Assembly: GCA_963845755.1 (NCBI GenBank)
Contig: CAWJTV010000020.1
Span: 722,742 to 786,741, forward strand
DNA length: 64,000 bases
Direction of reading: 5' to 3'
Origin: an uncultured Planctomycetota bacterium
GTDB lineage: Bacteria > Planctomycetota > Planctomycetia > Isosphaerales > Isosphaeraceae
The translations under genes and the position numbers were made by a program. Of the stretch, positions 3,067 through 55,591 are shown one piece after another. A model generated the notes under the pieces. That model had not been told where the DNA came from and did no database searches. It saw nothing but the letters and a program-made list of their open reading frames with translations. How positions within the stretch are numbered: the first letter of the stretch is position 1; every line of letters starts with the position of its first letter.

Positions 3067-3503
3067 GTTTTTTTCAGAGTCCGCCGCACCGTCTCGTAAC
3101 TGACGGTTTCGACGATCCCCAGTTCCACCACCTTTCGAGCTAAGAGCCGCAGCGTCCAGTTGGCATAACCCGGGGGCGGTGACCCGAGCCGTGTGGCGAT
3201 GATCTTCGCCTCCTGTTCGCCGTTGAGTCGCTTCTCGACCGGCGGCATCTGGCGCCTGCTGCGGTCCAATGCCTCTCGAAAGCCGTACTCCACGAGACGC
3301 TGACGAATGTTCTCGACGGTCTGCGTTCGGCATCCGAACGCCTCGGCGATGCGACGATCGGTCCAGTTCGGACCGTCCGCATCGGCCTTGAACAGGATCT
3401 GGGCGCGTCGAACCTTCTCGCTGGTTCCCTTCAACTTCTTGATCACGGCCGCCAACTCGTCCCGTTCCTCAGCCGTAAGCCGGACAATGTACTTCTTGTT
3501 CAT
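3067..3503 (-). CDS. IS630 transposase N-terminal HTH part
   Basis: MNKKYIVRLTAEER...WTLRLLA...SYETVRRTLKK, ending at the A7C slippery site. Confidence 0.88.
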
Positions 3504-4378: not shown

Positions 4379-5495
4379 TTACTGCCGGTGGCGGTAGCTC
4401 GACGTTCCGATCCGCTGGAGCCGTGTAGATGCCTGGCTTGCCATCGATCGTGTAGACGATAATCAAGGTCTTCTTGACCCCGAAGTCGGCGTCGGGTTGG
4501 AAGTCGTATTCGGGGGAGGCGACCTTCAGTCGGTTCTCACGGACGAGGTTCCGGGCTGGCACCGTGATGTCGTTCCATTGATCGCCTACGCCGATCTCTG
4601 CGCGGATAATGTGAAATCCCCGAGGGTCGCTGGTCTCGGAGTCACCGAGATTGGCGCGGTCGGCCTCTGCAACGATTTCCTGGCGCCTGGCGGCGTCCTT
4701 CTTCGAGATCGCCTTGCTCGCTCTGTCAAGTTCTTCGAGATACTTGCGACGAGTCATTTTAATGTCGTTGTCGTAACGCTCGTTCAGCTTTTTGAGGGAA
4801 GCCTGGAACGTGCCCCGCGCCGCCTGCAACGCAGGGGTGTGCGGTGGTTCGGCCGTCTCGAGTGGTTCGATCCGGACTCTGACAAAGATCGGCCAGCGGT
4901 GGTCCGACTTGAAGTCAAACCACACGACATACTCCTTCCCCGCCTGAAGCTTGCGGCCATAGAGTCGATAATGCGTCCAGAGATTCGGCTGCGGAAGGTC
5001 GAGGCCGGGGATCGTGACGTTCATCTTGTCTGAGGGATAGGTAAACATCATATCTTCGCCGTTGACTTCCACGATACCGAGCGCTCGGAACGGCTGATCC
5101 TCGAAGCTTTCGCCTGAAACAGCGAACGACCAGAACAGTTGATACGTTCGACCCGCCGAAGGAACGCGAAAACGGAACGCGTCGAAGCCGCCGCCACGGG
5201 CATTCATCGTCACTTTCGCGTATCGTGCCTTGCCGCCGACCATCGCCGGGATCTCGGCGAATGACGCACGATACTGGGAGACCAGCGCCTTGAACTCCTG
5301 TTCCGCCGCGACCCTGGTCGACTGATCCTGAAGGTTGCTGATCCGTAAGCGGAATTCATGGGCTTTGGCAAGGGCCGCTCTCACCTCGCGAGGGCCGCGA
5401 TTGCTCTGTTTTTTCGGGACCTGGCCCACGCTATTCGAGGCGAACACCAGAGAGGCCGTCGTCACCAGGGCGAGCGTCTTGTGAGTTACCGACAT
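4338..5495 (-). CDS. secreted hypothetical protein with C-terminal DUF3395-like motif
   Basis: Signal-peptide-like N-terminus MSVTHKTLALV; C-terminal DADFGVKKTLIIVY; paralogous to the neighbouring gene. Confidence 0.6.
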   Translation of the reverse strand: MSVTHKTLALVTTASLVFASNSVGQVPKKQSNRGPREVRAALAKAHEFRLRISNLQDQSTRVAAEQEFKALVSQYRASFAEIPAMVGGKARYAKVTMNARGGGFDAFRFRVPSAGRTYQLFWSFAVSGESFEDQPFRALGIVEVNGEDMMFTYPSDKMNVTIPGLDLPQPNLWTHYRLYGRKLQAGKEYVVWFDFKSDHRWPIFVRVRIEPLETAEPPHTPALQAARGTFQASLKKLNERYDNDIKMTRRKYLEELDRASKAISKKDAARRQEIVAEADRANLGDSETSDPRGFHIIRAEIGVGDQWNDITVPARNLVRENRLKVASPEYDFQPDADFGVKKTLIIVYTIDGKPGIYTAPADRNVELPPPAVRHPSSRTLPAGSN

Positions 5496-7091: not shown

Positions 7092-7802
7092 ATGGGATCG
7101 GATTGCGAGGGAGGGGATGGGGTGGCGATCCGGGCAGTCGAGGTACGGAAGGTGTACGGGACGAAGGACGCCCAGGTCGAGGCTCTGCGGGGGATCTCGA
7201 TCGAGATCGCGGGCGGTGAGCGGGTGGCGCTGCTGGGCAAGTCGGGGTCGGGGAAGTCGACGTTATTGAACCTGCTGGGCGGTCTCGACCGGCCCAGCTC
7301 GGGCGGACTGCGGGTCGGCGGCCGGGACCTCCACCAACTCTCGGGGCGCGAGATGGCCCGGTTCCGGTCGACGACCGTTGGCATGATCTTCCAGTCGTTC
7401 AACCTGATCGGCTCGAGGTCGGCTGTTCAGAACGTTGAACTGCCGATGGTCTTCGCGGGCCGATCGCTGCGCGAACGGCTGGCCGCGGCCCGAGGGGCGC
7501 TGGAGGCGGTCGGGCTCGGGGCGAGGCTGAATCATCGGCCGGATCAGTTGAGCGGAGGCGAGAGCCAGCGGGTCGCCATTGCGCGGGCGCTGGTCAACCG
7601 GCCTCGGGTCATTCTGGCCGACGAGCCGACAGGGAACCTTGACAGCCAGACGGCGCAGCAGGTCATGGCCCTGATCCTCGACCACGTCCGCGAGCACGCC
7701 GCCACCCTCGTGCTCGTCACCCACGACGAGGAGCTGGCCGCGAGCTGCACGGACCGGGTCATCCGGCTGGTCGACGGCCGGATTGCGGCAGCGGGCATTT
7801 GA
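7092..7802 (+). CDS. ABC transporter ATP-binding protein (LolD/MacB-like)
   Basis: Walker A GKSGSGKST, LSGGESQRVAIARAL, ILADEPTGNLD. Confidence 0.93.
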   Translation: MGSDCEGGDGVAIRAVEVRKVYGTKDAQVEALRGISIEIAGGERVALLGKSGSGKSTLLNLLGGLDRPSSGGLRVGGRDLHQLSGREMARFRSTTVGMIFQSFNLIGSRSAVQNVELPMVFAGRSLRERLAAARGALEAVGLGARLNHRPDQLSGGESQRVAIARALVNRPRVILADEPTGNLDSQTAQQVMALILDHVREHAATLVLVTHDEELAASCTDRVIRLVDGRIAAAGI

Positions 7803-15976: not shown

Positions 15977-17553
15977 TCACTCAGTCCCGTCGGCGCCGGC
16001 CTGGTGCAACTCCTGCCAGCGGTCCGGCAGCAGTTCGTCGATCCGCTTCGCCGGGTGCGTGCTGATCCGATCGAGCCCATCGCGGAGGTAAGCCTGGGGG
16101 TCGATCCCCAGATTCTTGCAGGTCGTGCACAAGCTCATCAACACGGCCGCCGTCTGGCCTCCCTGGTCGCTCCCCGCGAATAACCAGTTCTTCCGTCCCA
16201 GCGCCACGGGCTTGAACGCGCGGCGCGCACGCACCGTTGTCCAGTTCGAGGAACCCGGCCTCCAACGGACGCTTCAGGGCCTCCCAATGGTTCAAGGCAT
16301 ACTGGATCGCTTCGCCGATCGGACTCTTGGGCAGAACCTTGGGCTGCTCGGCTTCCAGCCAGGCGTGAAACTTGTCGAAGATCGAACGCGATCGCTCGTT
16401 TCGCAGTTCGTGCCGGAACGCGACGAAGGCCTCGTAGTCCGCGGTCGCGCGCTTCTTGGCGTCGCGTTCGACGTCGTAGAGCAGGCTGATCCATGCCAGC
16501 GCCTGATGGGACCGTTGCGGGTTCGACGGTCCGCGCCTCGTAGAACTTCCGTCGCGCGTGCATCATGCAGCCGACCTCGATAATCTCGCCCGACTTGTAC
16601 AGGCCGTCGTAGGCCGAATAGGCGTCGGCCTGGAGATAACCCTGGAAGTCCTTGAAGATCTCCCGGGGCCCGGTGGCGCTGCGGTCCGGCGTGTAGCGAT
16701 AGACCACGTAAGGATGGCCGCGGTCGCCGACGGAGACCCAGAGCCGGCCGGTCTTGATCCCCTTGCCGTCGTGGTCCTGCACCGGCACCGTCGTGTCGTC
16801 GTTCTGGACGACCCTGGAGCTGAGGATCTTCTTCAGCATCAGATCGACGATCGGCTTGAGCAGATCGGCGATCGTGGCCATCCAGTCGCACATCGTTGAC
16901 CGCGACAACTCGACGCCCGAGCGATCGAGGATTCCCTCGAGGCGATAGAGCGGCAAGTGATCGGCATATTTGCTGACGGCGACGTAAGCCAGCAGCCCCG
17001 GGCCTGGCAGGCCCTTGTCGATCGGCTCGGGGAGCACGTCGGCGATCACGACGTTGGCCTGGCAGTCCTGGCAAGCGTACTTGGGGCGGATGTGTTCGAG
17101 GATGACCAGGCGGGCGGGGATGAATTCGAGTTGCTCGCGGACTTCCCGGCCGATGCAGGTGCGCTCGGCGCCGCAGTCGGGGCAAGTGCGTTGTTCGGGC
17201 GGGACGTCGTGCAAGACCGGCACTCGGGGCAGGCTCGCCGGCAACGGCTTGCGTCCGTGGCCCTTCTTCTGGGCCGCACTCGGAGCGGGCGTCGGGGCCG
17301 GGGCCGGCTCCGGGGTCGGGGCGGGTGTCGGCGCCGCCTCGGCCTGCTCCAGGATCTCCCGGGCGAAGAGCAAGAGCTGGGCCGGGTCGATCCGCTCCCC
17401 TTTGGGACCGTAGCGCTGGCGGAGGAGCTGCTCGAGCTGGTGCTGGAGCTTCTCGTTGAGATGGACCTGCTGGGCGAGCGACTTGAGCAGCTCACGGATG
17501 AGCTGATGGGCCGCCTCCAGGTCGTCCGGGAGTGGGTCCGCGAGGGTGATCAT
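15977..17553 (-). CDS. tnpC: IS66 transposase TnpC (indels)
   Basis: SKYADHLPLYR, QNDDTT, LQADAY, ALGRKNWLFAGS and LLPDRW motifs. Confidence 0.92.
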
Positions 17554-17779
17554 ACCCTATACTACGTTGACGGGTGCTCGATTGTTGGCGCATTATGCTC
17601 CTGTCGGTAGATTATTCTCCGAATTTCGAAGGGGAGTGGCGGGCCGCGAGTAGCGGACGCGCCGTCGGGCCTTGTCCAGATCGATGCCGGCCAGGAGGGC
17701 GGCGAGTTCGGCGGTGGTCATCTCGACGCGATCGGCCGCCGCGTCCGGGATGCGGAAGGTGCCGCGTTCGAGCCTCTTG

Positions 17780-20363
17780 ATGCTGGCATCACAGGACCCT
17801 CGTTCTTGTGGCGTTACACAAATCCTGAGACGTTGGGCTACTGCCGCCACGAATCGGCGGCCTCTCTTGCTACCGGTCGGGACGGTCCTTGGGAACGACC
17901 AACTCAGGGTGCCGGGCGGCGATCCAGGAGTTCTTTCGTCTGGCCAGTTGTCGCAGGCGACGAACCTCGTCCTTGTCGGCCCACACGATCAGATGCTTTC
18001 CCGAAGGCGTACGCCGCGAATGGACCCAACCCTGCTTGATCCAATAATGGACCTTCTGGGCGATGACGCCGAGTTTCCCGGCCAAGTCGGGGATCCACCA
18101 CTCGTCCTGGCCGACGAGGTCGTCGCGGAACAGTTCTCCGACCAGCCCAAGTTCACGGACCAACGCCCCGATCGTTCCCGCCGTGAACACGCCGCGACGG
18201 CGCGGCGGGACGAAGCCCTCGGCATTGAGCCGCGCGGCGATCTGCGACAGGTGAAGTCCTTCTCGATGGAGTTGCTTGATTCGTTCCGTGAGGCGTCGAA
18301 AATCCTTCAATTGCTCATACCTGCCGACTGGCCTCGCGACCTGCTGTTGGGTTGTCATGCCGCCGAGCCAAACGATCGTTACCTCGTTGAGCTCAGTCGC
18401 CTTGTCGGCCACGACAATGACCCGCTCCACCGCGCAGCGCACGATCTGCTTGCGATCCATCGCCGACGTGCCTGGTGCGTGCCAGAGCGCGGCGACGCTC
18501 TCGGAGAGCGATCGAATCCGTTGGCGATCGGCGTCGTTCAGCGTCGCCGGCAGTCTCGTCAGGAACCGATGGTAATCCTCCTCCGTTTGACGCTGCTTCT
18601 TCAGCGCGTCCTCCCACCGCGCCTCGAGTGTCCGCGCCACGAGTCGGTTCTCGGGCTCCACGGCCTGATACTGCCGCTCGGCCCTCTCGACCTCCTGGCG
18701 TGCGCGTTCCAGAGTCTGACGCCAATGGTCGTGGAGGCGCTTGCGCTCTCGCTCGGCGTTCTCGATCGCGCGTAGGCTCAGGTCCAGCGCAGCGGGCTCC
18801 AACTGCGCGGAGCACTTCCTTCGCGACCAGGTCGTCCAGCGTCTTTGCCGAGATGCACCCGCACGGCTCGTCCAGGGCCAGCCGCCAATACTCGCCGCAG
18901 TGATAGCCGGGCTTCTTGTCGGCCTTGTATCGCGTCGTCATGTGGCGGCCGCATTTCCCACAGACGACCAGGCCGGGCAGCAAGGCCTCGCCGCGTTTGG
19001 GCACGCCCCGCGTGTCGTGGAGCGATCGATTCTGTTTGAGGCGTTCCTGATTCGCGAGATAGCGATCCCAGCTAATGTACGCTGGGAGCCGATCCGGCAG
19101 GAACACGGCCAACTCCTCGGGCGGCACGAACCACTTGCCGCCTTCGGCTCGACCCGTCGTGGGATTCTTCGTCCCCTGCGCGATGTAGGCCATAAGCGTA
19201 TGCCCCCGCATAGATGGGGTGTCGCAAGATCGACAGGACTCGACTGGGAGAGGCTGGCTTCCACTCCAGCTCCCCAATGCGCCCACCGCGATGACGGCGA
19301 AATCCCAGTTGCAGGTTGTTCACGACCAGGTAACGGAAGACCGCGTAGGCGGAACCGAGTTCCTCGAACTTCTCGAACACCAACTGAATCATTCCACGCG
19401 CCTGCTCGTCAGGCTCTTGAATGATCTCGCCCGTGGCCGTCTTGAGGTATCCCAGCGGAACGGCCAGGAACAGCTCGCCTGCGCTCCGCTTTGTTCCGAC
19501 TGCCTCGAAGCAAACGATTGTACATAGTAATCAATTCGTATTCGCTCATTGCGCTTTTCATGCCAAGGAGGAGACGATCGTTACTGTCCAAGGCATCGTA
19601 GACGCCATCTTGATCGCATAGCAGGGTGCGAAAGATGCCGCAGACGTCGATAAGACGATGCCATTCGGTATTCGACCGCGACACCCTGCTAAGCTCCAAC
19701 CCCAGCACGATCCCCACGTGGTTCAAGCTCACTTCCGTCATCAACCGCTGGAAGCCCGTGCGATGGTCGGTCAACTTGCCGCCGTGGCCCTGATCCTCGT
19801 CGATGATCACCACCCGCTCTGCGGGCCAACCGAGCCGTTGCGCGAACTGCGCCAGAGCATACTGCCGTTCGCGAGACTCGCGGTTCTCGAGGACTTGCTG
19901 CGGCGTTGACTGCCGCACGTACACGATCGCGAGTCGATCGAGATGCCGATCGCCAATCTTCGAGCTCGACCTCTGGCCGAAGGTGGAGGTCGATGGAGTC
20001 TCGTCGATTGATCTGTCCGTGCGATTGACGGCCCGTGCATCACGAGATTTCATCGCGCACCTCCTGAGCGGTGCGAGGCGCGCCGAGTTGTCGAGTCACG
20101 ATGTCGCTGAGGGTGAGCAGCGTTCGTTGACGCTGCTCGTCCGTCAGTCGGCTCCAGAGTTGGTCCAGCACCGACGGCCGAACGACCGACGTGCGCGGGG
20201 GGAGCAACGAGTCCGGCGTCTCGCGACATGGGGCACCTCCTTGGATCACGGGGTGTTGAGCTTCGATCCATTCCGCCAGCCGCATCAGGCCGGCCAGCGC
20301 GATTATGGGGGTGTCCGACGATTCCTGTAAAGTCGAGAGGATGGGGGCAGTCTTACTCGTACT
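17780..20363 (-). mobile_element. minimal large-serine-recombinase integrative element
   Basis: Bounded by a 5-bp TCTTG core (17775-17779 and 20364-20368); contains only the recombinase and a small upstream ORF. Confidence 0.8.
17870..20053 (-). CDS. large serine recombinase (indels)
   Basis: AIVYVRQST catalytic Ser, ELSRVSR, LLPGLVVCGKCG Zn ribbon, coiled coil VEPENRLVARTLE; spread over ORF pieces 19409-20053, 19072-19392, 18393-19286 and 17870-18802. Confidence 0.9.
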
Positions 20364-20558
20364 TCTTGGCCCAGACGGCCAGGCCATCGCGATCCCAGTA
20401 CAGGATCTTGATGCGGTCGCGGCGCTTGTTGACGAAGACGAAGAGATGACCGGAGAGGGGATCTAGCGCCAGGCTGCCTGATGCCAGGGCGGCCAGGCCG
20501 TCAAAGCTCTTGCGCATGTCGGCCGGCTGTTTGGCGAGATAGACGCGGACCGCGGCGC

Positions 20559-20924
20559 TCAGTCCGAACATGGGCGTCCCTCCACGACCGCGATGAGATG
20601 GCGGAGGGTCAGGGGGTCGAATCCGGGGGCGACGGCGATCCGACGTCCGTTGGAGAGGATGAGTTCGAGGTGGGGTCCCGAGGCGGCGCTCGGCGGGATG
20701 GGATCGGGAAGGATAGTGACCGGGAGGAAATGGCGGTCGGCACTGGCGAAAGGACGATCGTCGCTGGGAGTGCGATCGGCCGGGGCGGGCTGGTAGAGAT
20801 GCTTTCGGAAGGAGTGAAGCGAGATTTGGCGAAGGCGGCAGAACTCGGCTTGAGTCAGACCGCTCCTGCGGAAATCGTTGAGGAGGGCATTCCATCGTAG
20901 ATCGATGGTTCGGCTTCGAGACAC
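20559..20924 (-). CDS. tnpA: IS66 TnpA accessory protein
   Basis: SGLTQAEFCR HTH, FLPVTI and LELILSNGRRI; overlaps the tnpB start. Confidence 0.85.
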   Translation of the reverse strand: MSRSRTIDLRWNALLNDFRRSGLTQAEFCRLRQISLHSFRKHLYQPAPADRTPSDDRPFASADRHFLPVTILPDPIPPSAASGPHLELILSNGRRIAVAPGFDPLTLRHLIAVVEGRPCSD

Positions 20925-21017
20925 GGCGTGATCTCCCTGACGGGACCACTGGCCCCGACAGCACTATCATCGCGGGGAGTCACGCCGCTTTGTAGATGCA
21001 CTTCACCGGACGGACAC

Positions 21018-21074
21018 AACTGGTCCGTCCGGCCCGTTAAGCCGGTCGTAGGTTCGAATCCTACCTCCTCCGCC
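21018..21074 (+). tRNA. 5'-truncated tRNA-Asn(GTT)-like sequence
   Basis: Anticodon arm CCGGC-CCGTTAA-GCCGG, T arm GTAGG-TTCGAAT-CCTAC, acceptor 3' strand CTCCTCC; the 5' part is replaced by the IS66 end. Confidence 0.6.
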
Positions 21075-21197
21075 CCGTCCATCCGCCAGGCGCGTGGCCG
21101 GGGCGGTTAGGCGTGTCGCTCCGGAAACTTGTGCAGGTCTCGGTTTTCTCGCACGCACTTCAGGATCATCATCAAAGTCACCAACACGGAGGCGATC

Positions 21198-21425
21198 ATG
21201 GCCGAACGACTCAACGGCGGAGCCGTCCTGCACGTCCGCTTCGACGGCCGAAGCCTTGACCTGCCGCTGGGCGATCTCCATGTCGGCCTCGGGGCCGACG
21301 ACTTCGAGATCAAGACCGCGCTGGCCCGGCACCTCGAGGTCCACGAGGCGAAGCTGCGCGACTATACCGTGGACCGGCACGAGACCGGCAACCTCACCGT
21401 CCGGCCCGAGGCCGTGTTCGGTTGA
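21198..21425 (+). CDS. 75-aa putative ubiquitin-like (beta-grasp) protein ending in Gly
   Basis: GGAGG RBS; beta-beta-alpha-beta-beta pattern; C-terminal LTVRPEAVFG; same strand as the downstream ThiF gene. Confidence 0.6.
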   Translation: MAERLNGGAVLHVRFDGRSLDLPLGDLHVGLGADDFEIKTALARHLEVHEAKLRDYTVDRHETGNLTVRPEAVFG

Positions 21426-21498
21426 TCGGATAATCAAGGGACCAACCCGTACCCAACGGCACGAGCGTACAAACAACTCTTTCATAAGGCAGAAGTTG

Positions 21499-22770
21499 GG
21501 TGGTGTCCCAAGCGTATTGAATGTCGTAAGTCTTGCGGTGTTTGCGACTTAGGCAAATCTTACTGAGGGATATGTGAGCCATTCACGCATGGTCCACACA
21601 TGGTCGGTCAACCCCGCGGCCATCGCGGGCGATCGCTGCCGAGGTCGGCCCTGCTCGTCTCGATCCGCCAACGTCCGTACAGGCCAGCAGAAGTTATAGC
21701 TGTAAATTGTGAAATAGGTCATTGATTCATGCACTTGCCAATCCTTCGAGAACGTGTAGGTCTTGCGTACCTTCCGGGCGTTGCGATGTCGGTCCGTCGC
21801 GTTGTCTCGTTCCAGGAACGAGACGTTGACCTGCAGGCTCACCTTGGAGCGCCGCAAGGCCCGACCCAACGCCGCCATCGTGCCGAAGATCAGATGGACC
21901 AGGATCTCCACCACCCGACCCCGCCGACGCTTCTTCTGGACAGTGGCATAGGTCAGCTCCGGCAGCGGCTCCTTCTCGGGCACCATCCGGTGGCTGTCGC
22001 GCCCCGTCGGGGTCGTCGTGACGTCCGTCCCGTAGACGTGCAGGATCGCGTCCTTGTAGGCCGGGTAGTCATCGCTGGTCATCAGCCGCAAGGGACGGCC
22101 CTCCGTCCGCTGGTAGACGTCGCTGACCACAGTCTCGGTCTGCTCAGACATTCGCGCCCCGGGAACGACGCAGAGCACCAGCTTGTGCTCCGGATCGTAA
22201 GCCGTGTGATCCCACCAATCGCCCCGCTGGGCGTCGGCCGGGTCTGCCGGGTCGCAGTGCTCCTGCTTCTTGTAGACGAAGGACCATTTCTCGTCGAACT
22301 GGACTTCTTCAGTCCGAGGGGGAAAAAGCCACGAGTTCGTCGTGGAGTTGCTGGGCGTGATCGCCCAGGAGTCGGCTGTAGCGGACCACGGTATCGCGGT
22401 GCACCCCCACCAGCCGAGCGGTGGCCCGCACCCCAGTGCGATCGGCCACGTGTCTTATCAAGTCGAGGGCCTTGTCCGCGGGTAAGGTCGAACCGAACAG
22501 GGGTGTCCCCTTCCGTTCGGAGAACCGGGCCTTGCAGGTATGGCAGTAGAGCAGCCGGATCGGTTGGGTCTTGCCGTAGCGGCCGACGACGGTCAGATTG
22601 CCGTGTCCCCTCTTGCCGTAATCGGGGCAGGCCGGGTCTTGGCAGCAAAAGCGGGAGAGATCGTCCATGGATACATCTCCATGATTGCGTGACTGGTGCA
22701 GACGAACTCATAGCGATAAACCCGTTATAAGCGGTGGACTTGCGACATTCAATACAGCTAGGACACCACC
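21499..22770 (-). mobile_element. IS1-family-like insertion sequence
   Basis: IRs GGTGGTGTCCCAAGCGTATTGAATGTCG / CGACATTCAATACAGCTAGGACACCACC; 8-bp direct repeat AGAAGTTG (21491-21498 and 22771-22778). Confidence 0.88.
21549..22668 (-). CDS. IS1-like transposase (Zn finger/HTH plus DDE, frameshifted)
   Basis: CCQDPAC...CHTC N-terminus; TTTTTCCCCC shift site near 22320; QFDEKW, TSDDYPAY, FLERDN and SPAMAAGLTDHVW motifs. Confidence 0.8.
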
Positions 22771-22897
22771 AGAAGTTGCAGGTTCGAATTCCTGCCGGCC
22801 CAATGGCTCAATCATGGGGCCGTAGCTCAATGGCAGAGCGCTGCTGAGTTTCAACGCTGATGCGACTTGTACGGGGCTGGACATCGATCGGGAACAA

Positions 22898-23043
22898 CCC
22901 GCACCCGACGGCATGAGCCTACAAACCTAACCGGGACCAGTCCTCGAAAGAGGGTGGGGGTTCGAGTCCCCCCGGGTTAAAATCCGTGGCGAAACTGGTA
23001 GACGCGCTGGTAGATGATCTTAAGCTCATGCGACTTGTGCGGG
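22898..23043 (+). ncRNA. YrlA/Y-RNA-like permuted tRNA mimic no.2 (class II, Leu-like)
   Basis: Closing stem CCCGCAC/GTGCGGG and GCATGAGC/GCTCATGC. Inside are ACCAG/CTGGT, variable arm CCTC-GAAA-GAGG, T arm GGGGG-TTCGAGT-CCCCC, a looped acceptor stem, and D arm GCG-AAACTGGTAGA-CGC. Confidence 0.78.
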
Positions 23044-23048
23044 CTGTC

Positions 23049-26948
<3,900 letters not shown>

Positions 26949-26993
26949 GCGGACCTCCCGCCGAACCGCCACGTCGTCTTCCGTTGACGGATC

Positions 26994-27055
26994 GTAGGGT
27001 GGGTGAAACCCACCAACTGACTGAGACTTACATCGGCGGGTTGCACCCACTCTAC
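26994..27055. repeat. GTAG-type REP doublet (REPIN-like)
   Basis: GTAGGGTGGGTGAAACCCACC ... GGCGGGTTGCACCCACTCTAC inverted pair. Confidence 0.7.
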
Positions 27056-27094
27056 AGCGGCGGTTTTTCGAACGGGCGACGCAATTCTCTTGTG

Positions 27095-27982
27095 ATGCAT
27101 CGGACATCTGTGGCGATCAAGAAACGCTTCCTCGAGACCCTGGATCGATTGGCGGCCGTCGAGGATCGCGCCCTCGCCTCAGAGTTCCTGGCACCGATGC
27201 TTCGTGGAAGGGTAGTCCAGGTACGGATTGCCGGAGTCGTCTGCCGGCTCAGGGTGAGCCCACCGAGTTTCGAAGGTTGGGGTGTCTTCCGGCCCACGTC
27301 TTCAAACACGGCGGAACTGGTCCGTCCGGCCCGGATGACCGAGCGACGCCAGTACCTTGAGCTCCTCCCCTTGCTTCGGATGATCGTCTGTCTCCGCGTG
27401 CAAGACCAATGGCTGGCGATCCCCTCGCACGGTGCCGACACGCATCTTCGGATCGAGGGGCTGTCCTCCATCCGCCTGGTCGAGGAGGCCCAGCTTTTCG
27501 AGGTCGTGCTCACCCGCTTCGACGGCGCACAATGCTGGTATGACGGTCCGGACCCGCGCCGAGATCCCGGGACGGCGGCCTACCTTCGCGAGGCGCTCGG
27601 CCGAATGGTCGAGCCCCAGCAATTGAGCCGGAACGGACTGACTGCGGAGGAACGAGCAGCGTACGTTGTGAGCTACGCACTGCGGCTCCAGGCGGGGATC
27701 GAAGCCCATCGCGACCGGGTCGAAGAACGACTCCGCATGGCGCTGGCCCACGCGGGCGCCAGGCTTCGCGACTACCAGGAACGGGGCGACGTTTACCGAA
27801 TCGCCTATGAGGTCGATGGCCGCCGCCACGTTTCGGTCATCGACCCCCAGGACTTATCTGTCCAGGTCGCCGGCATCTGTCTGAGCGGCCAGGACCGCCG
27901 CTTCGACCTCAGCAGCCTGGTCGGCGTGCTCCGCGAGGCAGAGGGGGGTTCCCAGATCGTCCGCGTCGGCCCCGATTATTGA
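27095..27982 (+). CDS. hypothetical protein with C-terminal E2-like AGICLSG motif
   Basis: ~295-aa ORF between the TROVE and ThiF genes on the same strand; start may instead be GTG 27110. Confidence 0.7.
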   Translation: MHRTSVAIKKRFLETLDRLAAVEDRALASEFLAPMLRGRVVQVRIAGVVCRLRVSPPSFEGWGVFRPTSSNTAELVRPARMTERRQYLELLPLLRMIVCLRVQDQWLAIPSHGADTHLRIEGLSSIRLVEEAQLFEVVLTRFDGAQCWYDGPDPRRDPGTAAYLREALGRMVEPQQLSRNGLTAEERAAYVVSYALRLQAGIEAHRDRVEERLRMALAHAGARLRDYQERGDVYRIAYEVDGRRHVSVIDPQDLSVQVAGICLSGQDRRFDLSSLVGVLREAEGGSQIVRVGPDY

Positions 27983-28115
27983 GCGTTTCAGGCAATAGGC
28001 AACCTCGCGCCGTGGCCAGGTCTTCCGACCTTGCCACCCGACCGGTCGAAAGACTCCCTCGGGTGATCTGACGGGTCAAGGCTTCCCTGCTACGCCCAGA
28101 AGAGAGGTGACAGCG

Positions 28116-28760
28116 ATGGCCGACAAGTTCCATCACGAGCGGATTTATCGCGGAGCCGACCTCCTGGGCAGGCTCGAGACGGTCCCGATCACGCTTTGCG
28201 GCGCGGGGGCTTTGGGATCCCTCCTGGCCGATAACCTGTCGCGCCAGGGATTCCGCCGGTGGACGGTCATCGATCGCGACCGCGTCGCGGAGCACAACGT
28301 CGGCACGCAGCTCTACGGTGAGGCAGAAGTCGGGGCGTGGAAGGTCGAGGCGCTACGGAATCGTCTCTTCCGGGCCGTGGGAGTCGAGATCGAGGCCATC
28401 GCCAAGGAATTCACGGAACGGAACTCCCGGAGCCTCTTAAATGGCACGGGCTTGGTCCTCGACACGTTCGACAACTCGGCCGCGCGCGGGCTGGTCCAGA
28501 AGCGTTGCCGGGAGCGAGCCGTGCCGTGCCTCCACGTCGGCCTGTTCGCCGACTATGCCGAGGCGATCTGGGATGAGACCTATCGCGTCCCCCGCGACGT
28601 GGCTCTCGACGTGTGCGATTATCCGCTGGCTCGCAACCTCGTTCTCCTGGCCGTCGCGGTGGCTTCGGAGGCGTTGATTCGGTTCGTCCTCGATGGCTTG
28701 AAGGGCGGCTGGTCGGTTACGCTCCGCGACCTCGCCATCCGACCTCTAGAGCCCAGATGA
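28116..28760 (+). CDS. ThiF/E1-like adenylyltransferase
   Basis: [23 protein letters not shown] and DTFDN motifs; no CxxC pairs; candidate catalytic Cys in DVCDYP. Confidence 0.92.
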   Translation: MADKFHHERIYRGADLLGRLETVPITLCGAGALGSLLADNLSRQGFRRWTVIDRDRVAEHNVGTQLYGEAEVGAWKVEALRNRLFRAVGVEIEAIAKEFTERNSRSLLNGTGLVLDTFDNSAARGLVQKRCRERAVPCLHVGLFADYAEAIWDETYRVPRDVALDVCDYPLARNLVLLAVAVASEALIRFVLDGLKGGWSVTLRDLAIRPLEPR

Positions 28761-28774
28761 TCAGAGAATTGGGG

Positions 28775-31700
28775 TCACGGCCGGGCGAACCAGGTTTGCT
28801 CCGGCACTTCCAGTGGGATATAGCAGAACGCGTCTTGCTGACGTCCGCTGAGGTTCTCCACCGTGTCGCGAAGCGACGTCTTGAACTGGTCGAGCGTGTA
28901 GGCATCGGCCCGATTGCCGTTCGGATTTGCCCCCTGGAATACGCGCAGGACGCCCAGCGCGAACAGCCCGTGCCCATTCGGGACGTCGACGTCGCTCGGC
29001 CCTTCTTTCGAGGCCACGAATGTGATCACGCGGCGCTTCAGGTAGAGCTCGCGCACCAGGGGCTTGATCTCGCTGACCACGGACTCGTCCACTTTGTGGA
29101 CGCCGTCCAGGAAGACGATGACTCGGCAGCCGTAGTCGGTCAATTGACCCAGGAGGTCGCAGAGGTCTTGCGCCGGGATGACCGACCTGGAGGGCTGACC
29201 GAGCTGGCTGTCGGACGCGGCGATGATCGTCGAATCCTGTTGCACCAGGACGTGAGCGGCGATCGCGATGGCCACGACATCCCCCTTGTTGACCCGCTTC
29301 TTCTTGAGCAGATCGTCCAGGCGGTCGAGCGCGGCGATGATCGAGGTTGACGAGGCTTCTGCATGAGTCAAGACCTGCCGCGTCTCAACCTTCATCCGGG
29401 CGGCATCGGTCGAGACCAGGTGGTCGCCGAGGAACTGGGCGACCTCGCTCGCGTCCTTGTCGGCGAATGGCACAGGGGGCAAGTGCTGGTCGGCGAGCTT
29501 GTCGGTGCCAATGCTGAGAACATGGAGCTGTGGTGTCGTCGCGATCGGCTGGGGCGGTTGAACGTAGACCATGTCGAGAGTCTCGGTCCGTCGGGTGCCG
29601 CTGACGCTCATGGCATCAACCGCCAGGCGCACTTGTCGATTCGGGACCAGGTCGATTTCGACGTCCTCGGAGAGACTGGCCACGGGCTGGGCGATCGGAG
29701 CCTGGGCCCGTAGCCGCTCGTCGACGATAATGCGGCGCTCGCGGATCTCCGCCTTCCCCTCATCAGTGGCGATCTTGACCGAAAGCCTGGGCCTGGCAAC
29801 GTTGACTCTCCACACCACGCCCGGCGCGGGAATCCGGGCATCTCCGCCGATCGAGGCGAAGACAATCCGAGGGGGCTTGCTGGCGACCGCCACGGCCTCG
29901 GGCGGCGCCGTGTTGGCCGGCAGCGGTGCCAGAGCCTGCCCCATGTCCCCGATGCGCCAGAGCCGCTCCAGGACATCGGGGCGGTTCATCATCCGGGCAT
30001 AGGTGATGATGGGGACGAAGTCGGCCGACCGGGACGAGAGGTAAGGCGGGTTCGTATGCCACCCCAGCAGCCGTGTGTCCCCGGCGATCGAGGTCTCGTA
30101 ATAACCGCCGGGCGTCCAGACCACCCACTCCTTTTCCGCGTCGAGGAGCAGGGTCAAGGCCGGGTTATCTTGCTTGGTCGTCGGCAGGAGGGTCTCCAGC
30201 GGGATCGGACCGAGCGCGGGAATGGAAACCATACGCCGGACTTTGATACCGATCGTGTAAGTCAAGGGCTCCAATCCGTCGACAAGTTTGACGAATTCCG
30301 CGATCTCGGCGGGCTTGGCGTAGTATTTCCGGGTCTCCCGGCCTGTGCCCGTGCCGGCCTCGAGGACGGTATCACCGGCATTCAAGCCCATCGCGGCGGC
30401 AAAGCTCCGGGGCTGCACCGATTCCACCGTCCAGACCCCACCGGCCCGCTGGCGAAAGGCGGCGCCTAGCGCGGGCCGGGTGTCGCATCCGGCCAGCGGA
30501 TAGAGCATCACGGTCTGATCTTGCGAGCTGCTGGCCAGCCATCGGCCGTCGGGCGAGGCGACCAGGGCGACGATCGGGGCACTGTGGCCGGCGAAGGTGC
30601 GGGTCCGCCGGCCCGTATCGAGGTCGAAGACCGCGATGCTCGACTCGGTGCCGATCGCCACCGTCGCGCGGGGCTGCGCCGGGCCCGGCGGCACAAAAGT
30701 CGATGACCACCACCATCGTTCAGTGGTCGGATTGATGGCGAGCAAGAAGCGGCGGCCGTCGGCGTTGATGGCCTCCAGGCCGAAGGGATTGAGACTCGGC
30801 CTGAGCGTCCAGCCTGCATACGCCGAGATCGCGCGGACCAGCCCCTCGCGAGGCACAGTCCGCGTCCGGCGACGCATCAGGTCAAACCCCTCGTAAGTCC
30901 CCGGAGCGTTGGCCGCTCCGAACGGTTGCCGAGTGAAGGCGACGGCCTGGCTGTCCCGCGTGAAACCGAGATCAAACGGGGTGGTTCCCTTTCCTTTGAG
31001 CTCGCGCGGTGGTGCCTGCATCGCCGCGACGTCCTGGATAAAGAGGCTCTGTGCCGGTCCGCCCGCATAGGCCAGGCGGTTCCCATCAGGGCTGAACGCC
31101 ATGGCCCGGACGAGTCCATGGACCCGCCGTGGGGGCTGCGGCACGAGGTTCCCATCGGGCATCGAGCGGAGCTCGATGTCGCAGGCGATCGTCATGGGAT
31201 CGGGCACCTGGGCCGCGTCGCTCTTGATGCTGACCGCCAGGAGCCGGCCGTTGGGGTGGTACGCGACGACTTCGACCGGCTTCTGGTCGGCGGCACGGAT
31301 CCTGGCCAGATTCCCTCCCGCCAGGTTCGCGGTGTCCAGGCCGATCACGGCCCCGCGCTCATTGCCGATGACAATGGACCGGCCGTCGGGACTGTACGCC
31401 ACGGTATTGGTCTGGACGCGCGTCTCCAGCAGGGACGCGGGTTGACCCTGGGCGACGTCCCAGAGTACCACTAGCCCCTCCGCACCCACCGTGGCGAGCC
31501 GAGTTCCATCCGGGCTGAAAGCCAGCGCACGAATGGGACCCGTGTGGCGTCGCAAGACCCGGATGGGCGCGAAGTCCCTGGCAACGTCCCAGAGGATCAC
31601 GGTTTGATCGTTGCTCGCGGAGGCAAGGATCGTACCGGCGGGGTTGAACACCAGACCCGTGACGCTGCTGCCATGAGCGATCGTCTGGAGATTGTTCCCA

Positions 31701-32165
31701 GGCGGCCGGACCAGCCGTTTGACGACCTCGCCCGATGGGTTTCGCTCGAGGCCCGGAACGCGAAAAACGGTGAAATCCCCGCGAGAGACTTCGACCCCGT
31801 TTCCCCCAACGGCGAGCAGGGACTGCCCCTGAGCATCGGGCCTTGGCGAGATGGCCATGGCGTAGATCGCCCCGCGCGGGCCGCGCCAAATTATCGGCCG
31901 TATCGTCTGGTTCAGGCGCCCGCCGGCCTGGAAATCCCAGACCTTCACGACCTTGTCTTCGCCGCCGGAGAACAGGATGAACGGGTCTTGCCAGACCAGG
32001 CTGCGCACCGGCGGCATGATGGCCTCCGGTTTCGACGACCAGGATCGGCGTCTTGTCGAAATTCCGCACGTCCTCCTGGGCCCGGGCCATCGTCGCCATG
32101 CCCAGTGCCGCGATTCCCAACACGATCGCCGCGGCGGCAGTCCGCAAGTCATCACCTCGAAGCAT
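28775..32165 (-). CDS. secreted WD40-repeat, PDZ-like and caspase-like (C14) protein
   Basis: Signal peptide (indel near 32020), many GH...WD repeats, SFAAAMGLNAGD PDZ-like segment, LHVLSIGTD...HGLFA caspase-like C-terminus. Confidence 0.8.
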
Positions 32166-32228
32166 TGTCTGGTCTCGTTTCCTCTGGGATGGGCCGAACT
32201 GAGGATTGGGGAACCGTCGAGCGAATCG

Positions 32229-34942
32229 TCACTCGAGCGAATACTGGAAATTCCCCGCGTCGTCAACGGTCACGTGGACCGCGCGGAGCGATTCGCCCCG
32301 GGACATCCGACTGAGGACTTCCTGGGAGATCTCGGGGAGCAGCGTGTGAGTCAGGATGTGATCGACGTTCCGGGCGCCGCTTTCCACCTCGCGGCAGCGG
32401 CCGGCGATGCTCTCGACCAGCTCGTCGCCATAACGGAACGCCGCCTTGTGATTCTGGTGCATTCGCTGGCCGATCCGATCGAGCTGGAGGCGGATGATCC
32501 GGCGCATCGCCTCGTCGGAGATCGGATAGTAAGCGACCGTGATCAGTCGCCCGAGGAATGCCTGTTTGAAGATCGCAACGCCCCGCTCGGAGCGGGCGGC
32601 GAGCAAGTCGGGGCGGATCGCCTCGGTCAGGCCCTGCGGCGAGGGGGTCGTCTCGGGGTCCTTGCAGAGTTCGAGGATCCGTTCAGTGCCGACGTTCGAG
32701 GTCAACAGGATCACCGTGTTCTTGAAGTCGATCTCGCGACCCTCGCCATCCTCCAGGGTCCCCTTGTCGAAGACCTGGAAGAACAGCTCGAGGACGTCGG
32801 GGTGGGCCTTCTCAACCTCGTCGAGCAGGACGACGCTGTGCGGCCTCCGTCGGACGGCTTCGGTCAGCACGCCCCCCTCGCCATAGCCCACGTAGCCGGG
32901 CGGCGAGCCTTTCAATCCCGAGACCGTGTGCGCCTCCTGGTACTCCGACATGTTGATCGTGATCAGATTGCGCTCGCCGCCGTAGAGCGTATCGGCCAGC
33001 GCCAGTGCGGTCTCGGTCTTGCCGACGCCGCTGGGTCCCACCAGGAGGAAAACGCCCACCGGCCGGCGGGGGTCGGTCAGGTTGGCCCGCGACGTCCGGA
33101 TCCTTTGGGCGATGGTCTCCAGGGCGTGAGATTGGCCAATGACGCGCTCCTCCAACTTGGAGCGGAGCCGCAATACCGTCTGGATCTCGTCCGCGAGCAT
33201 CTTGCCGACGGGGATGCCCGTCCAGCCGGCGACGACCTCGGCGATGGTCTGCGCGTTGACCGAGACGGGCATGAGCGGCGATTCGCCCTGAAGTGCGCGC
33301 AGGTCGCGAATCTTGGCCTGAAGATCGACTTGCGAGGCGACTAGCTCCGCGGAAGGCTGATAGGGCTGGATCTCGCCGTCGTCCGTGGCCGCGGGCTGTT
33401 CGCCTTTCTCCTCGTGGTAACGCGCCTCGATGGATTTTCCCAGTTCGCGAATCTCTGCGACACGCTTCCGCTCGTCCTCCCACCGCGACTCGAGGGCGGT
33501 TAGCCGGCTTCCGGCGTCTCCGAGCTCATGCCGGACCTCGGCCATCCTCTCGTCATGCCGAGCCCCGGTCGCACCTTCGCGGTCGAGGATGCCGATCTCG
33601 ATCTGGAGATGATCGATCTGACGACGGCAGTCCTCGACGGCTGGGGGAACCGCATTCTGGCTGATGGCGACCCGCGCAAGCAGTATCGAGCAGGCTGACG
33701 GCCTTATCCGGAAGTTGACGGGCGGGGATATACCGGTTCGAGAGCTTGACGGCGCTGTCGATCGCCTCGTCCAGGATTCGCACGCCATGGTGCGCCTCGA
33801 GCATCGCTGTGAGCCCGCGCATCATCCGGATCGCGTGCTCCTCGTCCGGTTCCTCGACCTTGACCACCTGGAACCGGCGGGCCAGTGCGGCGTCTTTCTC
33901 GAAATACTTCTTGTACTCGGCCCAGGTCGTGGCCGCGATGGTGCGGAGCTCGCCACGCGCCAGGGCCGGCTTGAGCAAGTTGGCGGCATCGCTCTGGCCG
34001 GCCTGACCGCCGGCGCCGATCATCGTGTGGGCCTCGTCGATGAACAGTACGATCGGGACCGACGAAGACTTGACCTCCGTGATGACCTGCTTGAGCCGGT
34101 TCTCGAACTCCCCCTTGATGCCCGCGCCGGCCTGGAGCAGCCCCAGGTCCAGGGTGCGGAGCACGACCTTTTCGAGCGCCGGGGGAACATCCCCCTGGGC
34201 GATCCGCAGGGCCAGTCCCTCGACGACGGCCGTCTTGCCGACGCCGGCCTCGCCGGTGAGTATGGGATTGTTCTGGCGGCGGCGGATCAGGATGTCGACC
34301 ATCTGGCGAACTTCGGCCTCGCGGCCGATCACCGGGTCGAGCTCCCCCTTCCGTGCCCGCTCGGTCAGGTTGATCGTGTACTGGTCCAGGGCCGGCGTCC
34401 GGCTCAAGACGGCGGGCCTCGTCCCTGCCGAGTCGCCCGGGGTCGATTCGGAAGCCGGTCCCTCGTCTTCACTCGACCCGGCCGCCAGCTTCAGGAGACT
34501 GGACTGGAGCTGTTCGCCCTTGACCTTGCTCAGCTCCCGCGAGGCGCCGTGCGCGCAGCCGCGCCAGCTCCTCGTCGTCCAGCAGCGCCAGCAGGAGCAC
34601 GCCCGAGCGAATCTTCGACTCCTGGAACTGGATCGACGACAAGACCCAGGCATGACGGATCAACTGATCGATCCGCAGCGAGAGCGCCGGCATCCGCTGA
34701 TGGCCCGTGCGGAGCTGGTCGAGACTCCGGGTCAAGTCCGCGAGCAGTCGCGCGGGATCGACCTCGAATTGCCGGAAGATCCGCGTCAGATCGGTATCCG
34801 GCCGATCGATCAGCTTGACCAGCCAGTGCTCGATCTCGACGCTGGGATTTCCCCGGGACAGACAGAGCCCAACGGCTTCCTCGAGCGCCTTGAGGCAAGT
34901 CGAGTTGAGCGTCTTGGTCAAAGCTCCCGAGTCAATACCCAT
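32229..34942 (-). CDS. tssH: type VI secretion ATPase TssH/ClpV (indels)
   Basis: ClpV N-terminus ([19 protein letters not shown]); [18 protein letters not shown]; second AAA domain [19 protein letters not shown]. Confidence 0.9.
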
Positions 34943-55518: not shown

Positions 55519-55591
55519 TGGGCGGCGCGGGATTCGAACCTGCGACTTCCACCGTGTGAGGATGGCACTCTAACCGCTGAGTTAGCCGCCC
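55519..55591 (-). tRNA. tRNA-Val(CAC)
   Basis: GGGCGGCTAACTCAGCGGTTAGAGTGCCATCCT-CAC-ACGGTGGAAGTCGCAGGTTCGAATCCCGCGCCGCCCA cloverleaf; CCA not encoded. Confidence 0.95.

Follow-up and report, generated by a model that had tools for sequence, protein, structure and literature searches.

A divergent Ro60-like protein and tRNA-like Y RNAs share a conserved gene set with a candidate ubiquitin-like conjugation module in bacteria and giant phages

Results

We analyzed a stretch of 64,000 nucleotides (nt; hereafter the window) from an uncultured planctomycete, which forms part of a 787-kb contig in a 14.3-Mb genome. On its plus strand, at positions 21018-28760 and with a G+C content of ~0.55-0.70, lies a gene set composed of RNAs resembling bacterial Y RNAs, a 75-amino-acid (aa) protein ending in glycine, a divergent Ro60-like protein, a protein with two oligonucleotide/oligosaccharide-binding (OB) barrels and an invariant cysteine (the OB-OB-Cys protein), and a ThiF-type E1 adenylyltransferase (Table 1). 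A preceding sequence-only reading of this stretch had listed these elements, and we found every one of them at the place it had given. The set is a real and widespread system that recurs in giant phages as well as across several phyla of bacteria, and the copy in the window is damaged.

Table 1 Features of the locus in the window and, in the last row, of cyanobacterial loci with additional genes. IS, insertion sequence; ORF, open reading frame; R1, covariance model built in this analysis from Y-like units.
Feature	Position	Strand	Details
Y-like RNA unit 0, truncated	21018..21137	+	anticodon-like hairpin, T arm, closed acceptor-like hairpin, D2-like 3′ strand 21118-21137
75-aa protein, candidate ubiquitin-like modifier	21198..21425	+	GGAGG ribosome-binding site; end RPEAVFG-stop, ...GNLTVRPEAVFG-stop
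Y-like RNA unit 1, 5′ part, cut by IS	21446..21498	+	D1 strand 21446-21474; R1 35.5 bits
IS element inside Y-like unit 1	21499..22770	-	34-nt inverted repeats, 85%; two overlapping transposase ORFs 21549-22178 and 22082-22711
Y-like RNA unit 1, 3′ part: permuted tRNA mimic (T arm, acceptor hairpin, D arm)	22771..22875	+	D2 strand 22856-22875; R1 62.9 bits
Y-like RNA unit 2, intact	22898..23043	+	R1 80 bits, full length 1-146
IS element between unit 2 and leader	23048..25181	-	44-nt inverted repeats, 93%; CTAG at both ends
Structured leader	25186..25387	+	D2-like strand 25192-25211, then D1-like strand 25272-25300 (reversed order)
Ro60-like gene, TROVE-type helical ring and vWA	25388..26948	+	two frames; alignment A2
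Possible short stem-only Y-like element	26957..27040	+	ends CCCGCCGA / TCGGCGGG pair; seen by eye alone
OB-OB-Cys protein, 295 aa ('E2-like' in the sequence-only reading)	27092/27095..27982	+	Cys265 in AGICLSG
ThiF-type E1 adenylyltransferase, bare domain, 214-217 aa	28107/28116..28760	+	Pfam ThiF 1.4e-24
End of IS66-type mobile region, TnpB-like ORF 20353-20970	20353..21017	-	Pfam TnpB_IS66 6.7e-24; outside the system but cuts it
Cyanobacterial loci with extra genes	L073:1807-7846; L079:5304-7572; L085:5243-7549		

A scan for the OB-OB-Cys protein, with one genome taken per species, gave 455 places, and the counts given here rest on the best 79 distinct loci (positions in related loci carry a prefix such as L009). 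A Ro60-like gene was present in 42 and the small protein in 36 of the 58 loci that had at least 3.5 kb of room upstream, while ThiF was encoded in 55 and a JAB peptidase in 28 of the 61 loci whose room downstream was 1.8 kb or more. These loci come from Planctomycetota, Chloroflexota, Myxococcota, Desulfobacterota, and Cyanobacteria and their non-photosynthetic relatives. They follow a common order: a Y-like RNA, the small protein, one to about eight further Y-like RNAs, the Ro60-like gene, stem-only RNAs, the OB-OB-Cys protein, often JAB, and ThiF. The four genes and the RNAs, for which the sequence-only reading had suggested a neighborhood comparison, co-occur across phyla and phages, and the comparison shows a single gene set that is conserved and has spread laterally.

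Filamentous cyanobacteria account for most loci that lack a Ro60-like gene. In five cyanobacterial genomes carrying a lone OB-OB-Cys protein and ThiF pair, the Ro60-like gene lay elsewhere in all five (E ~1e-230), and in four of them the small protein was its neighbor; a scan for small ORFs ending in glycine near the lone pairs found none. The cyanobacterial set is split in two places, yet kept. Between the Ro60-like and OB-OB-Cys genes, cyanobacterial loci also encode an RNA ligase with an OB domain (RNA_ligase 5.4e-25), Tpt1/KptA (5.4e-57), XisI, NUDIX and AAA ATPase proteins or, in other loci, an RNase T-like exonuclease together with DUF6847. The RNA-repair genes among these agree with the tie between Ro60, Y RNA and RNA repair described in parts of PMC7790460 and PMC4201824.

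Among 401 sampled genomes from the window's phylum, the OB-OB-Cys protein was found in eight (single-protein query), the Ro60-like protein in 12 (profile, E ≤1e-10) and both in seven. Completeness was 66-87% in the five genomes that had only the Ro60-like protein, and the one with the OB-OB-Cys protein alone gave a weak partial match. Weak partial matches in this sample represent a more divergent version of the set that keeps the same order of Ro60-like protein, Cys protein, JAB and ThiF (L102). A 90-aa ORF upstream in L102 was considered and rejected as the small protein.

The set also extends to phages. One of 50,697 phage records, a 595-kb uncultured phage (L088), holds the whole set upstream of a row of tRNA genes, and 13 contigs in IMG/VR encode the OB-OB-Cys protein, six of them longer than 200 kb. 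All 14 viral loci carry the Ro60-like protein, the OB-OB-Cys protein, JAB and ThiF, and 12 of the 14 carry the small protein (tblastn), at G+C contents of 0.36-0.63. In the 595-kb phage, ARAGORN reported three 'tRNAs' within the Y-like region (L088:2654-2728, 3038-3113 and 5312-5386), one of them with a four-base anticodon, and eight ordinary tRNA genes lie just downstream of the module (L088:15703-18697).

The Ro60-like gene encodes a von Willebrand factor A (vWA) part with an intact DxSxS metal ion-dependent adhesion site (MIDAS) motif, DKSGSM. Pfam TROVE (PF05731) matched neither the window's pieces of this protein nor its full-length orthologues, even at E 1, and gave no match across the window's whole genome, where controls were positive. 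A PDB profile search built on 22 sequences returned Ro60/TROVE chains as its top four matches, weakly (E 0.0012-0.043). A structural model of the orthologue from L009 (pLDDT 80, pTM 0.73) was more telling: its top 12 Foldseek matches in the PDB were all Ro60, Rsr or TROVE structures, including phage Ro60 (E 4e-12 to 3e-9, TM 0.57-0.68), aligned over nearly their full length (~520-580 columns), and the next matches covered the vWA part only, at 6e-5. The model and its matches bear out the earlier assignment of the N-terminal domain to a TROVE toroid and confirm, at the level of predicted structure, that the gene product has the Ro60 fold and represents a divergent branch.

Upstream of this gene, the leader folds stably (25186-25392: minimum free energy -103.3 kcal/mol, z -3.5), and one of 200 shuffles reached an equally good value. 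The 11-nt element TTGTACGCTCG (25357-25367) adjoins the ribosome-binding site and pairs with the D1-like strand. The leader is kept in three close relatives, and R1 scores 18 bits on 25272-25412. From this arrangement, it is a reasonable guess that the Ro60-like protein would regulate its own synthesis through the leader.

The OB-OB-Cys protein carries a cysteine, C265, that is invariant in 24 sequences within the motif AGICLSG.D..FDL. The window protein matches no Pfam family. Its model (pLDDT 81) starts with a helix at the N-terminus, continues through two OB-like barrels and a long helix to a meander of four strands, and closes with the Cys265 loop and a last helix. Foldseek matched exclusively OB-domain proteins, namely the double-OB 'inter domain' of Mpa/ARC (best 7ljf_D at 3.9e-4; also 3fp9 and 3m9b) and RNase II, and VIA-align returned the OB proteins S17, RsgA and eIF1A. 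The N-terminal region of Mpa/ARC, from the Pup-proteasome system, likewise has a helical part (a coiled coil) followed by two OB barrels, but the TM value is low (0.25 of the query), the window protein has the Cys domain instead of an AAA domain, and the shared OB arrangement is no evidence of a shared function. For the Cys domain itself, VIA-align gave Z scores of up to 6.6, with the RWD-type 5mu3_D (Z 5.3) and 7kzp_L (Z 4.9) appearing weakly among unrelated folds. We take its order of helix, four strands, Cys loop and helix to be comparable to that of the ubiquitin-conjugating (UBC) core. The E2 families UQ_con and Prok-E2 gave no match to the window protein, and none of the 24 members matched them at E 10. 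The label 'E2-like' therefore holds for the invariant cysteine and for the operon position, which is that of an E2, while E2 itself, with its UBC fold, is a candidate identity rather than an established one.

Relatives of the OB-OB-Cys protein are numerous, with 1172 in a word-indexed collection, one of which has a Pfam domain (a Prok-JAB fusion), and 1159 clusters at 50% identity in an exhaustive profile search (749 at E ≤1e-10, 396 at E ≤1e-30). Longer, fused forms were absent from 8000 candidates, which is weak evidence, and a search of the ESM Atlas with the Cys domain gave no lead (best score 0.76).

The small protein had been described in the sequence-only reading as ending in glycine. 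This feature proved general, as tblastn found the stop codon directly after the last glycine in 35 of 36 loci, and the alignment of 32 sequences (A4) has ten invariant columns, including G75, with a C-terminus of FG or YG. On these sequence features, the protein is a candidate ubiquitin-like modifier. The ESM Atlas returned only unnamed clusters, one with phage members. A complex prediction combining ThiF, the small protein and the OB-OB-Cys protein scored 0.01 against a mark of 0.32, a value that speaks neither for nor against binding. In the libraries searched, no described family includes the 75-aa protein or the OB-OB-Cys protein, and PADLOC contains none of the three unknown proteins of the set.

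The last gene of the operon was correctly recognized from sequence as ThiF/E1, since the Pfam ThiF match reaches 87 bits against a cut-off of 28.1. Across 30 sequences (alignment A6), the GAGALGS and DxxDN-type motifs are conserved and two cysteines are invariant. Named equivalogs (ThiF, MoeB, UbaA and Cap2) all scored far under their NCBIfam cut-offs, for example 70.9 versus 159 for ThiF, and the best PADLOC match was the E1 part of the CBASS E1-E2 protein (6.9e-18). The window has no JAB ORF, with 124 bases separating 27982 and 28107. Where JAB is present, it lies nearest to desampylase and Cap3, the Cap3 match being weak; one example, L010:8900-9325, scores 1.6e-10 with Prok-JAB.

The Y-like RNAs share one architecture, in which a 5′ strand (consensus CCCGTACCCAACGGCACGAGCNTACAAAC) and a 3′ strand (GCTNNTGCGACTTGTACGGG) enclose an insert. 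The unit ends pair and co-vary, as in CCCGTAC/GTACGGG, CCCGCAC/GTGCGGG (unit 2 of the window) and CGCGTGC/GCACGCG. RNAalifold predicted 29 pairs from 30 units, 15 of them with compensatory changes. Cells at paired positions were complementary in 98.6% of cases, compared with 84.5% in shuffles and 26-48% with the partner slid, double-sided changes occupied 125 cells compared with 37 in shuffles, and 0 of 500 shuffles matched any of five measures. A scan of 1.05 Mb of related loci with R1 gave 185 matches in 47 of the 79 loci, all 185 on the operon strand. In viral loci there were ten matches in the 595-kb phage and 32 (E ≤0.001) in ten of the 13 IMG/VR loci, again all on the operon strand. Within the window's own 14.3-Mb genome, R1 found this locus and one partial match.

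In units of the YrlA-like kind, encoded beside a Ro60-like gene, the end-formed stem encloses a permuted tRNA-like domain with a T arm, a closed acceptor stem and a D arm. The Rfam YrlA model (RF02553) matched 22770-22843 with 31.8 bits (E 4e-4) and 22949-23008 with 21.6 bits (E 0.35); neither reached the gathering score of 69 bits, and the aligned part covers model positions 23-85 of 114. Two matches in L053 (37.8 and 34.7 bits) also stayed below this threshold, with aligned positions within 23-87. At the place of the published Ro60 motif GNCGAAN0-1G, the units read CCCAACGG, CCCGACGG or CCCGACCG, which is similar and not identical. The shared end-formed stem resembles the Ro60-binding stem of Y RNAs.

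Inserts are of several kinds: YrlA-like permuted tRNAs with a 7-bp closed acceptor stem, unpermuted tRNA cores, one of which, at 49.3 bits, clears the threshold of the Rfam tRNA model, forms whose variable arm is long, and hairpin-only units. An insert of ~130 nt in L042:5759-5946 and L053:4329-4506 is identical to 23S rRNA over 21 bases (ATGACGGTCCTAAGGTAGC.A) and resembles it in the hairpin that comes next, and a 17-mer of it occurs once in the window's genome, within the 23S gene. This insert may be an rRNA mimic alongside the tRNA mimics. In addition, many loci have short units of 65-95 nt between the Ro60-like and OB-OB-Cys genes, in which the shared stem is joined to a small hairpin (for example L009:7500-7948, with an R1 match at 7500-7594, L036:7786-7880 and L053:7891-7984). 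A possible counterpart in the window, 26957-27040, is doubtful, as R1 does not match there. In many units, among them units of L023 (4856-4890), L031, L038 and L044, a run of T directly follows the terminal stem (for example GTGCGGGCCTGATTTTTTTG); such units may double as terminators or may be made as separate small RNAs.

In the window, the first unit is truncated. Its homology with eight intact relatives begins at ~21018, and the 5′ strand present in all eight is lost. Its T arm (GGTTCGAATCC at 21051) is the only part matched by R1, at 12.7 bits compared with 38-54 bits in the intact relatives. The sequence-only reading had called this element a tRNA-Asn-like RNA. An RNA with an anticodon-like hairpin does lie at 21018-21137; the tRNA-Asn interpretation of 21018-21075 was rejected, as neither ARAGORN nor the Rfam tRNA model supports it and the 'Asn' loop varies among relatives. 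The single tRNA that ARAGORN reports in the window is at 55519, and within the locus neither ARAGORN nor Rfam at gathering scores reported anything.

What truncates unit 0 is the end of an IS66-type mobile region, and public contigs matching up to 21017/21018 continue there with unrelated sequence. This region (16138-20970) is a mosaic of an IS66 transposase (16138-17553), a TnpB-like ORF with a long, odd N-terminus, and a broken large serine recombinase (Resolvase 19409-20053, Zn_ribbon_recom 18393-19286). Unit 1 is split by an IS flanked by an 8-bp target duplication, AGAAGTTG, at 21491-21498 and 22771-22778; when the flanks are joined across it (...CATAAGGC AGAAGTTG CAGGTTCGAAT...), the sequence of intact units in relatives is restored. 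A further IS at 23048-25181 carries a DDE transposase (23173-24357; Pfam DDE_Tnp_1 6.2e-5) and a helix-turn-helix ORF (24258-25013). While the earlier account of IS damage held, it had missed the truncation of the first RNA, the absence of JAB and a frameshift in the Ro60-like gene, which is split over two frames by one extra C at 25597/25598, where orthologues read LSGFEGHRDVG.

The frameshift may be an assembly error, because the genome's RtcB also splits into two frames without stops, because public contigs differ from the window by an extra C at 24274, and because several related records give similarly split matches. The RtcB in question sits on another contig (G000:C36:468220-469528; model positions 1-225 and 222-426), in line with the earlier statement that the window has no RtcB. 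The extra C behind 24274 was seen in public contigs of two runs, inside the second IS at its overlapping transposase ORFs, and reflects an indel of the assembly or else a different copy of the IS. Parts of the stretch occur in four DNA runs from a single study, in short contigs that leave out 25388-25651, and no RNA run containing it is listed among public reads. A joint at 23069/25160 in public contigs was set aside, as it rests on 22 letters on one side and falls within inverted repeats. The window copy is probably out of order, because its first RNA is truncated, its second is split by an IS and a further IS lies between the RNAs and the leader, and because it has no JAB gene and a frameshifted Ro60-like gene (unless the latter is an assembly error).

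Downstream of the operon, a convergent 1163-aa ORF on the minus strand (28775-32266) contains numerous WD40 repeats, and its long C-terminal part has no Pfam match among the matches listed. It is not kept beside the system in relatives, where L014 alone gave a weak WD40 match.

Discussion

Both halves of this gene set have known counterparts. Bacterial Ro60 is encoded in the rsr-yrlBA-rtcBA operon of Salmonella and occurs as Rsr with Yrn1 in Deinococcus, as described in parts of PMC4201824 and PMC7790460. The present set is like these in combining a Ro60 fold and vWA with adjacent RNAs that hold a permuted tRNA-like insert in an end-formed stem, in having several RNAs per locus, and in including RNA-repair enzymes in some versions. 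It differs in that its protein is too divergent for Pfam TROVE and its RNAs fall below the Rfam YrlA threshold, in that the stem is conserved on both strands and arrays of up to about eight RNAs carry other inserts, and in that RtcB does not lie beside it; its place is taken by the small protein ending in glycine, the OB-OB-Cys protein, JAB and the E1.

A phage-encoded example is the Ro60 of Thermus phage phiLo with Yrl1 and Yrl2 (PMC12135203, seen in part), which likewise has Y-like RNAs upstream and whose structure (9kop, 9l5y) was among the best matches of our model. The main text of that article, compared here as text and not as a phage genome, contains neither 'ThiF' nor 'ubiquitin' and mentions no ubiquitin-like protein (Ubl), E1 or JAB. 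A preprint on Asgard viruses reports Ro60, an RNA ligase and three ThiF genes for one virus and draws no connection between them. A survey of jumbo phages reports ROT/TROVE with a tRNA-like partner, in a main text without JAB, ThiF, Ubl or E1-like and with 'ubiquitin' in unrelated passages alone.

Among ubiquitin-like systems of bacteria, sets of Ubl, E1, E2 and JAB are formed by the Bil systems, by CBASS Cap2/Cap3 and by 6A-MBL. Shared with them are a small Gly-ended protein, a ThiF-type E1, JAB and, in the operon between these, a protein with an invariant cysteine. Here, however, that protein has two OB barrels and no detectable UBC fold, the E1 is a bare 215-aa domain, and the set is tied to a ribonucleoprotein (RNP). 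Sources on bacterial Ubl-type sets include PMC10097602 and PMC10557695, both seen in part. We found no paper that joins Ro60/Y RNA with a Ubl/E1/JAB module, although a mention in Burroughs & Aravind 2016 (NAR 44:8525) or in supplements is possible. As far as could be seen, then, Ro60 with YrlA-type RNAs (in phages too) and bacterial Ubl-E1-E2-JAB sets are known, and their coupling is undescribed.

What would such a coupling do? Tentatively, and with a probability that we put at roughly 0.45, we propose Ubl tagging steered by tRNA-mimic baits in a setting of conflict over tRNA damage and repair. The Ro60-like ring would bind the common stem of the Y-like RNAs, and the tRNA-like insert of each RNA would serve as bait, or as a platform, for tRNA-handling proteins. 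The E1 would adenylate the C-terminal glycine of the small protein and pass it to Cys265 of the OB-OB-Cys protein, which would attach it to the protein caught by the RNA or to the RNP itself, and JAB would remove it again. The setting would be a conflict over tRNA, comprising nuclease damage and repair, because cyanobacterial versions include RNA ligase, Tpt1, NUDIX and RNase T-like exonuclease genes and because giant phages carry the whole set beside tRNA genes. Three findings fit the earlier suggestion that the RNAs may act as decoys or lures: the inserts vary among tRNA-like modules and one 23S-like module, RNA-repair genes stand within cyanobacterial versions, and giant phages carry the set.

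Several observations weigh against tagging steered by RNA baits. The terminus of the small protein is FG and not GG, and searches of Pfam, PDB, NCBIfam, PADLOC and PHROGs gave no match to it, nor did any Ubl family. For the OB-OB-Cys protein, Pfam, PDB sequence search and Foldseek gave no UBC/E2 match, and given its OB folds it could act on RNA instead of protein. The motif in the stem (CCCAACGG or CCCGACGG) fits the published Ro60 motif GNCGAAN0-1G (PMC4201824) partly, and no conjugation target of the set is known. JAB is absent from 33 of 61 cellular loci, including the window, and in 16 of 58 loci the reachable stretch contains no Ro60-like gene. Finally, as kin do not count as separate cases, independent events are fewer than the co-occurrence counts suggest, and these counts serve as descriptions, not tests.

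The same proteins could instead regulate the RNP itself, with the small protein attached to the Ro60-like or OB-OB-Cys protein as a switch and the tRNA-like RNAs serving quality control or repair alone. In CBASS, Cap2 primes its cyclase and Cap3 reverses this, and the set's ThiF is nearest to CBASS E1-E2 models, while its JAB matches Cap3 weakly; the intact MIDAS motif of the vWA part could hold a partner, and the linkage of the genes is as tight as that of regulator-effector pairs. Against this, the modifier is a separate small protein and not the C-terminus of an effector, and the variety of RNA inserts is left without explanation, which makes self-regulation a doubtful account of the set.

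Alternatively, the E1 could make the small protein into a thiocarboxylate carrier in a sulfur relay that thiolates the tRNA-like RNAs or repaired tRNAs through the OB-OB-Cys protein. The pairs TtuB/TtuC and Urm1/Uba4 are Ubl/E1 pairs in tRNA thiolation. The best NCBIfam scores of the ThiF domain, below the cut-offs, were with ThiF/MoeB models, the context consists wholly of tRNA-like RNA with conserved T arms, and OB folds suit RNA binding. We nevertheless judge a sulfur relay unlikely, given that the annotated neighborhoods contain no rhodanese, cysteine desulfurase or PP-loop ATPase, that the terminus lacks the GG, and that JAB is part of 28 of 61 cellular loci and of all 14 viral ones.

A bolder and very improbable idea makes the RNAs themselves substrates of the E1 chemistry, the adenylated C-terminal glycine of the small protein being esterified to an RNA 3′ end after opening of the acceptor-like hairpin. 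Transfer could be direct or through Cys265 of the RNA-binding OB-OB-Cys protein and would yield a protein-charged tRNA mimic, a conjugate of RNA and protein made by chemistry of the ubiquitin type. The acceptor-like hairpin has seven base pairs; according to part of PMC4201824, this acceptor length is a determinant of RNase P cleavage, and in M. smegmatis cleavage is followed by CCA addition. If this were true, the panel of mimics (kinds of tRNA, a piece of 23S) would mark or trap enzymes that attack the RNAs of translation, in cells and giant phages. The remaining notion, that a Ro60/Y-RNA operon and a ThiF pair are mere neighbors, could appeal to the distance between the halves in filamentous cyanobacteria and to the many mobile elements in the window copy, but it is hardly credible when the order recurs in Planctomycetota, Chloroflexota, Myxococcota, lineages related to Cyanobacteria and 14 phage contigs (G+C 36-63%), and when the genes co-occur genome-wide even where unlinked.

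The function of bacterial Ro60 and its tRNA-like Y RNAs is still open, and a tie to ubiquitin-type chemistry gives it a testable handle. The divergent Ro60 branch is large, with 1159 clusters at 50% identity for its OB-OB-Cys partner alone. If tRNA-mimic baits do steer tagging, the set would add an RNA-guided member to the ubiquitin-like systems of bacteria and phages, and the adjacency to tRNA genes in phages, together with the RNA ligase and Tpt1 of cyanobacterial versions, points to a fight between phage and host over the integrity of tRNA.

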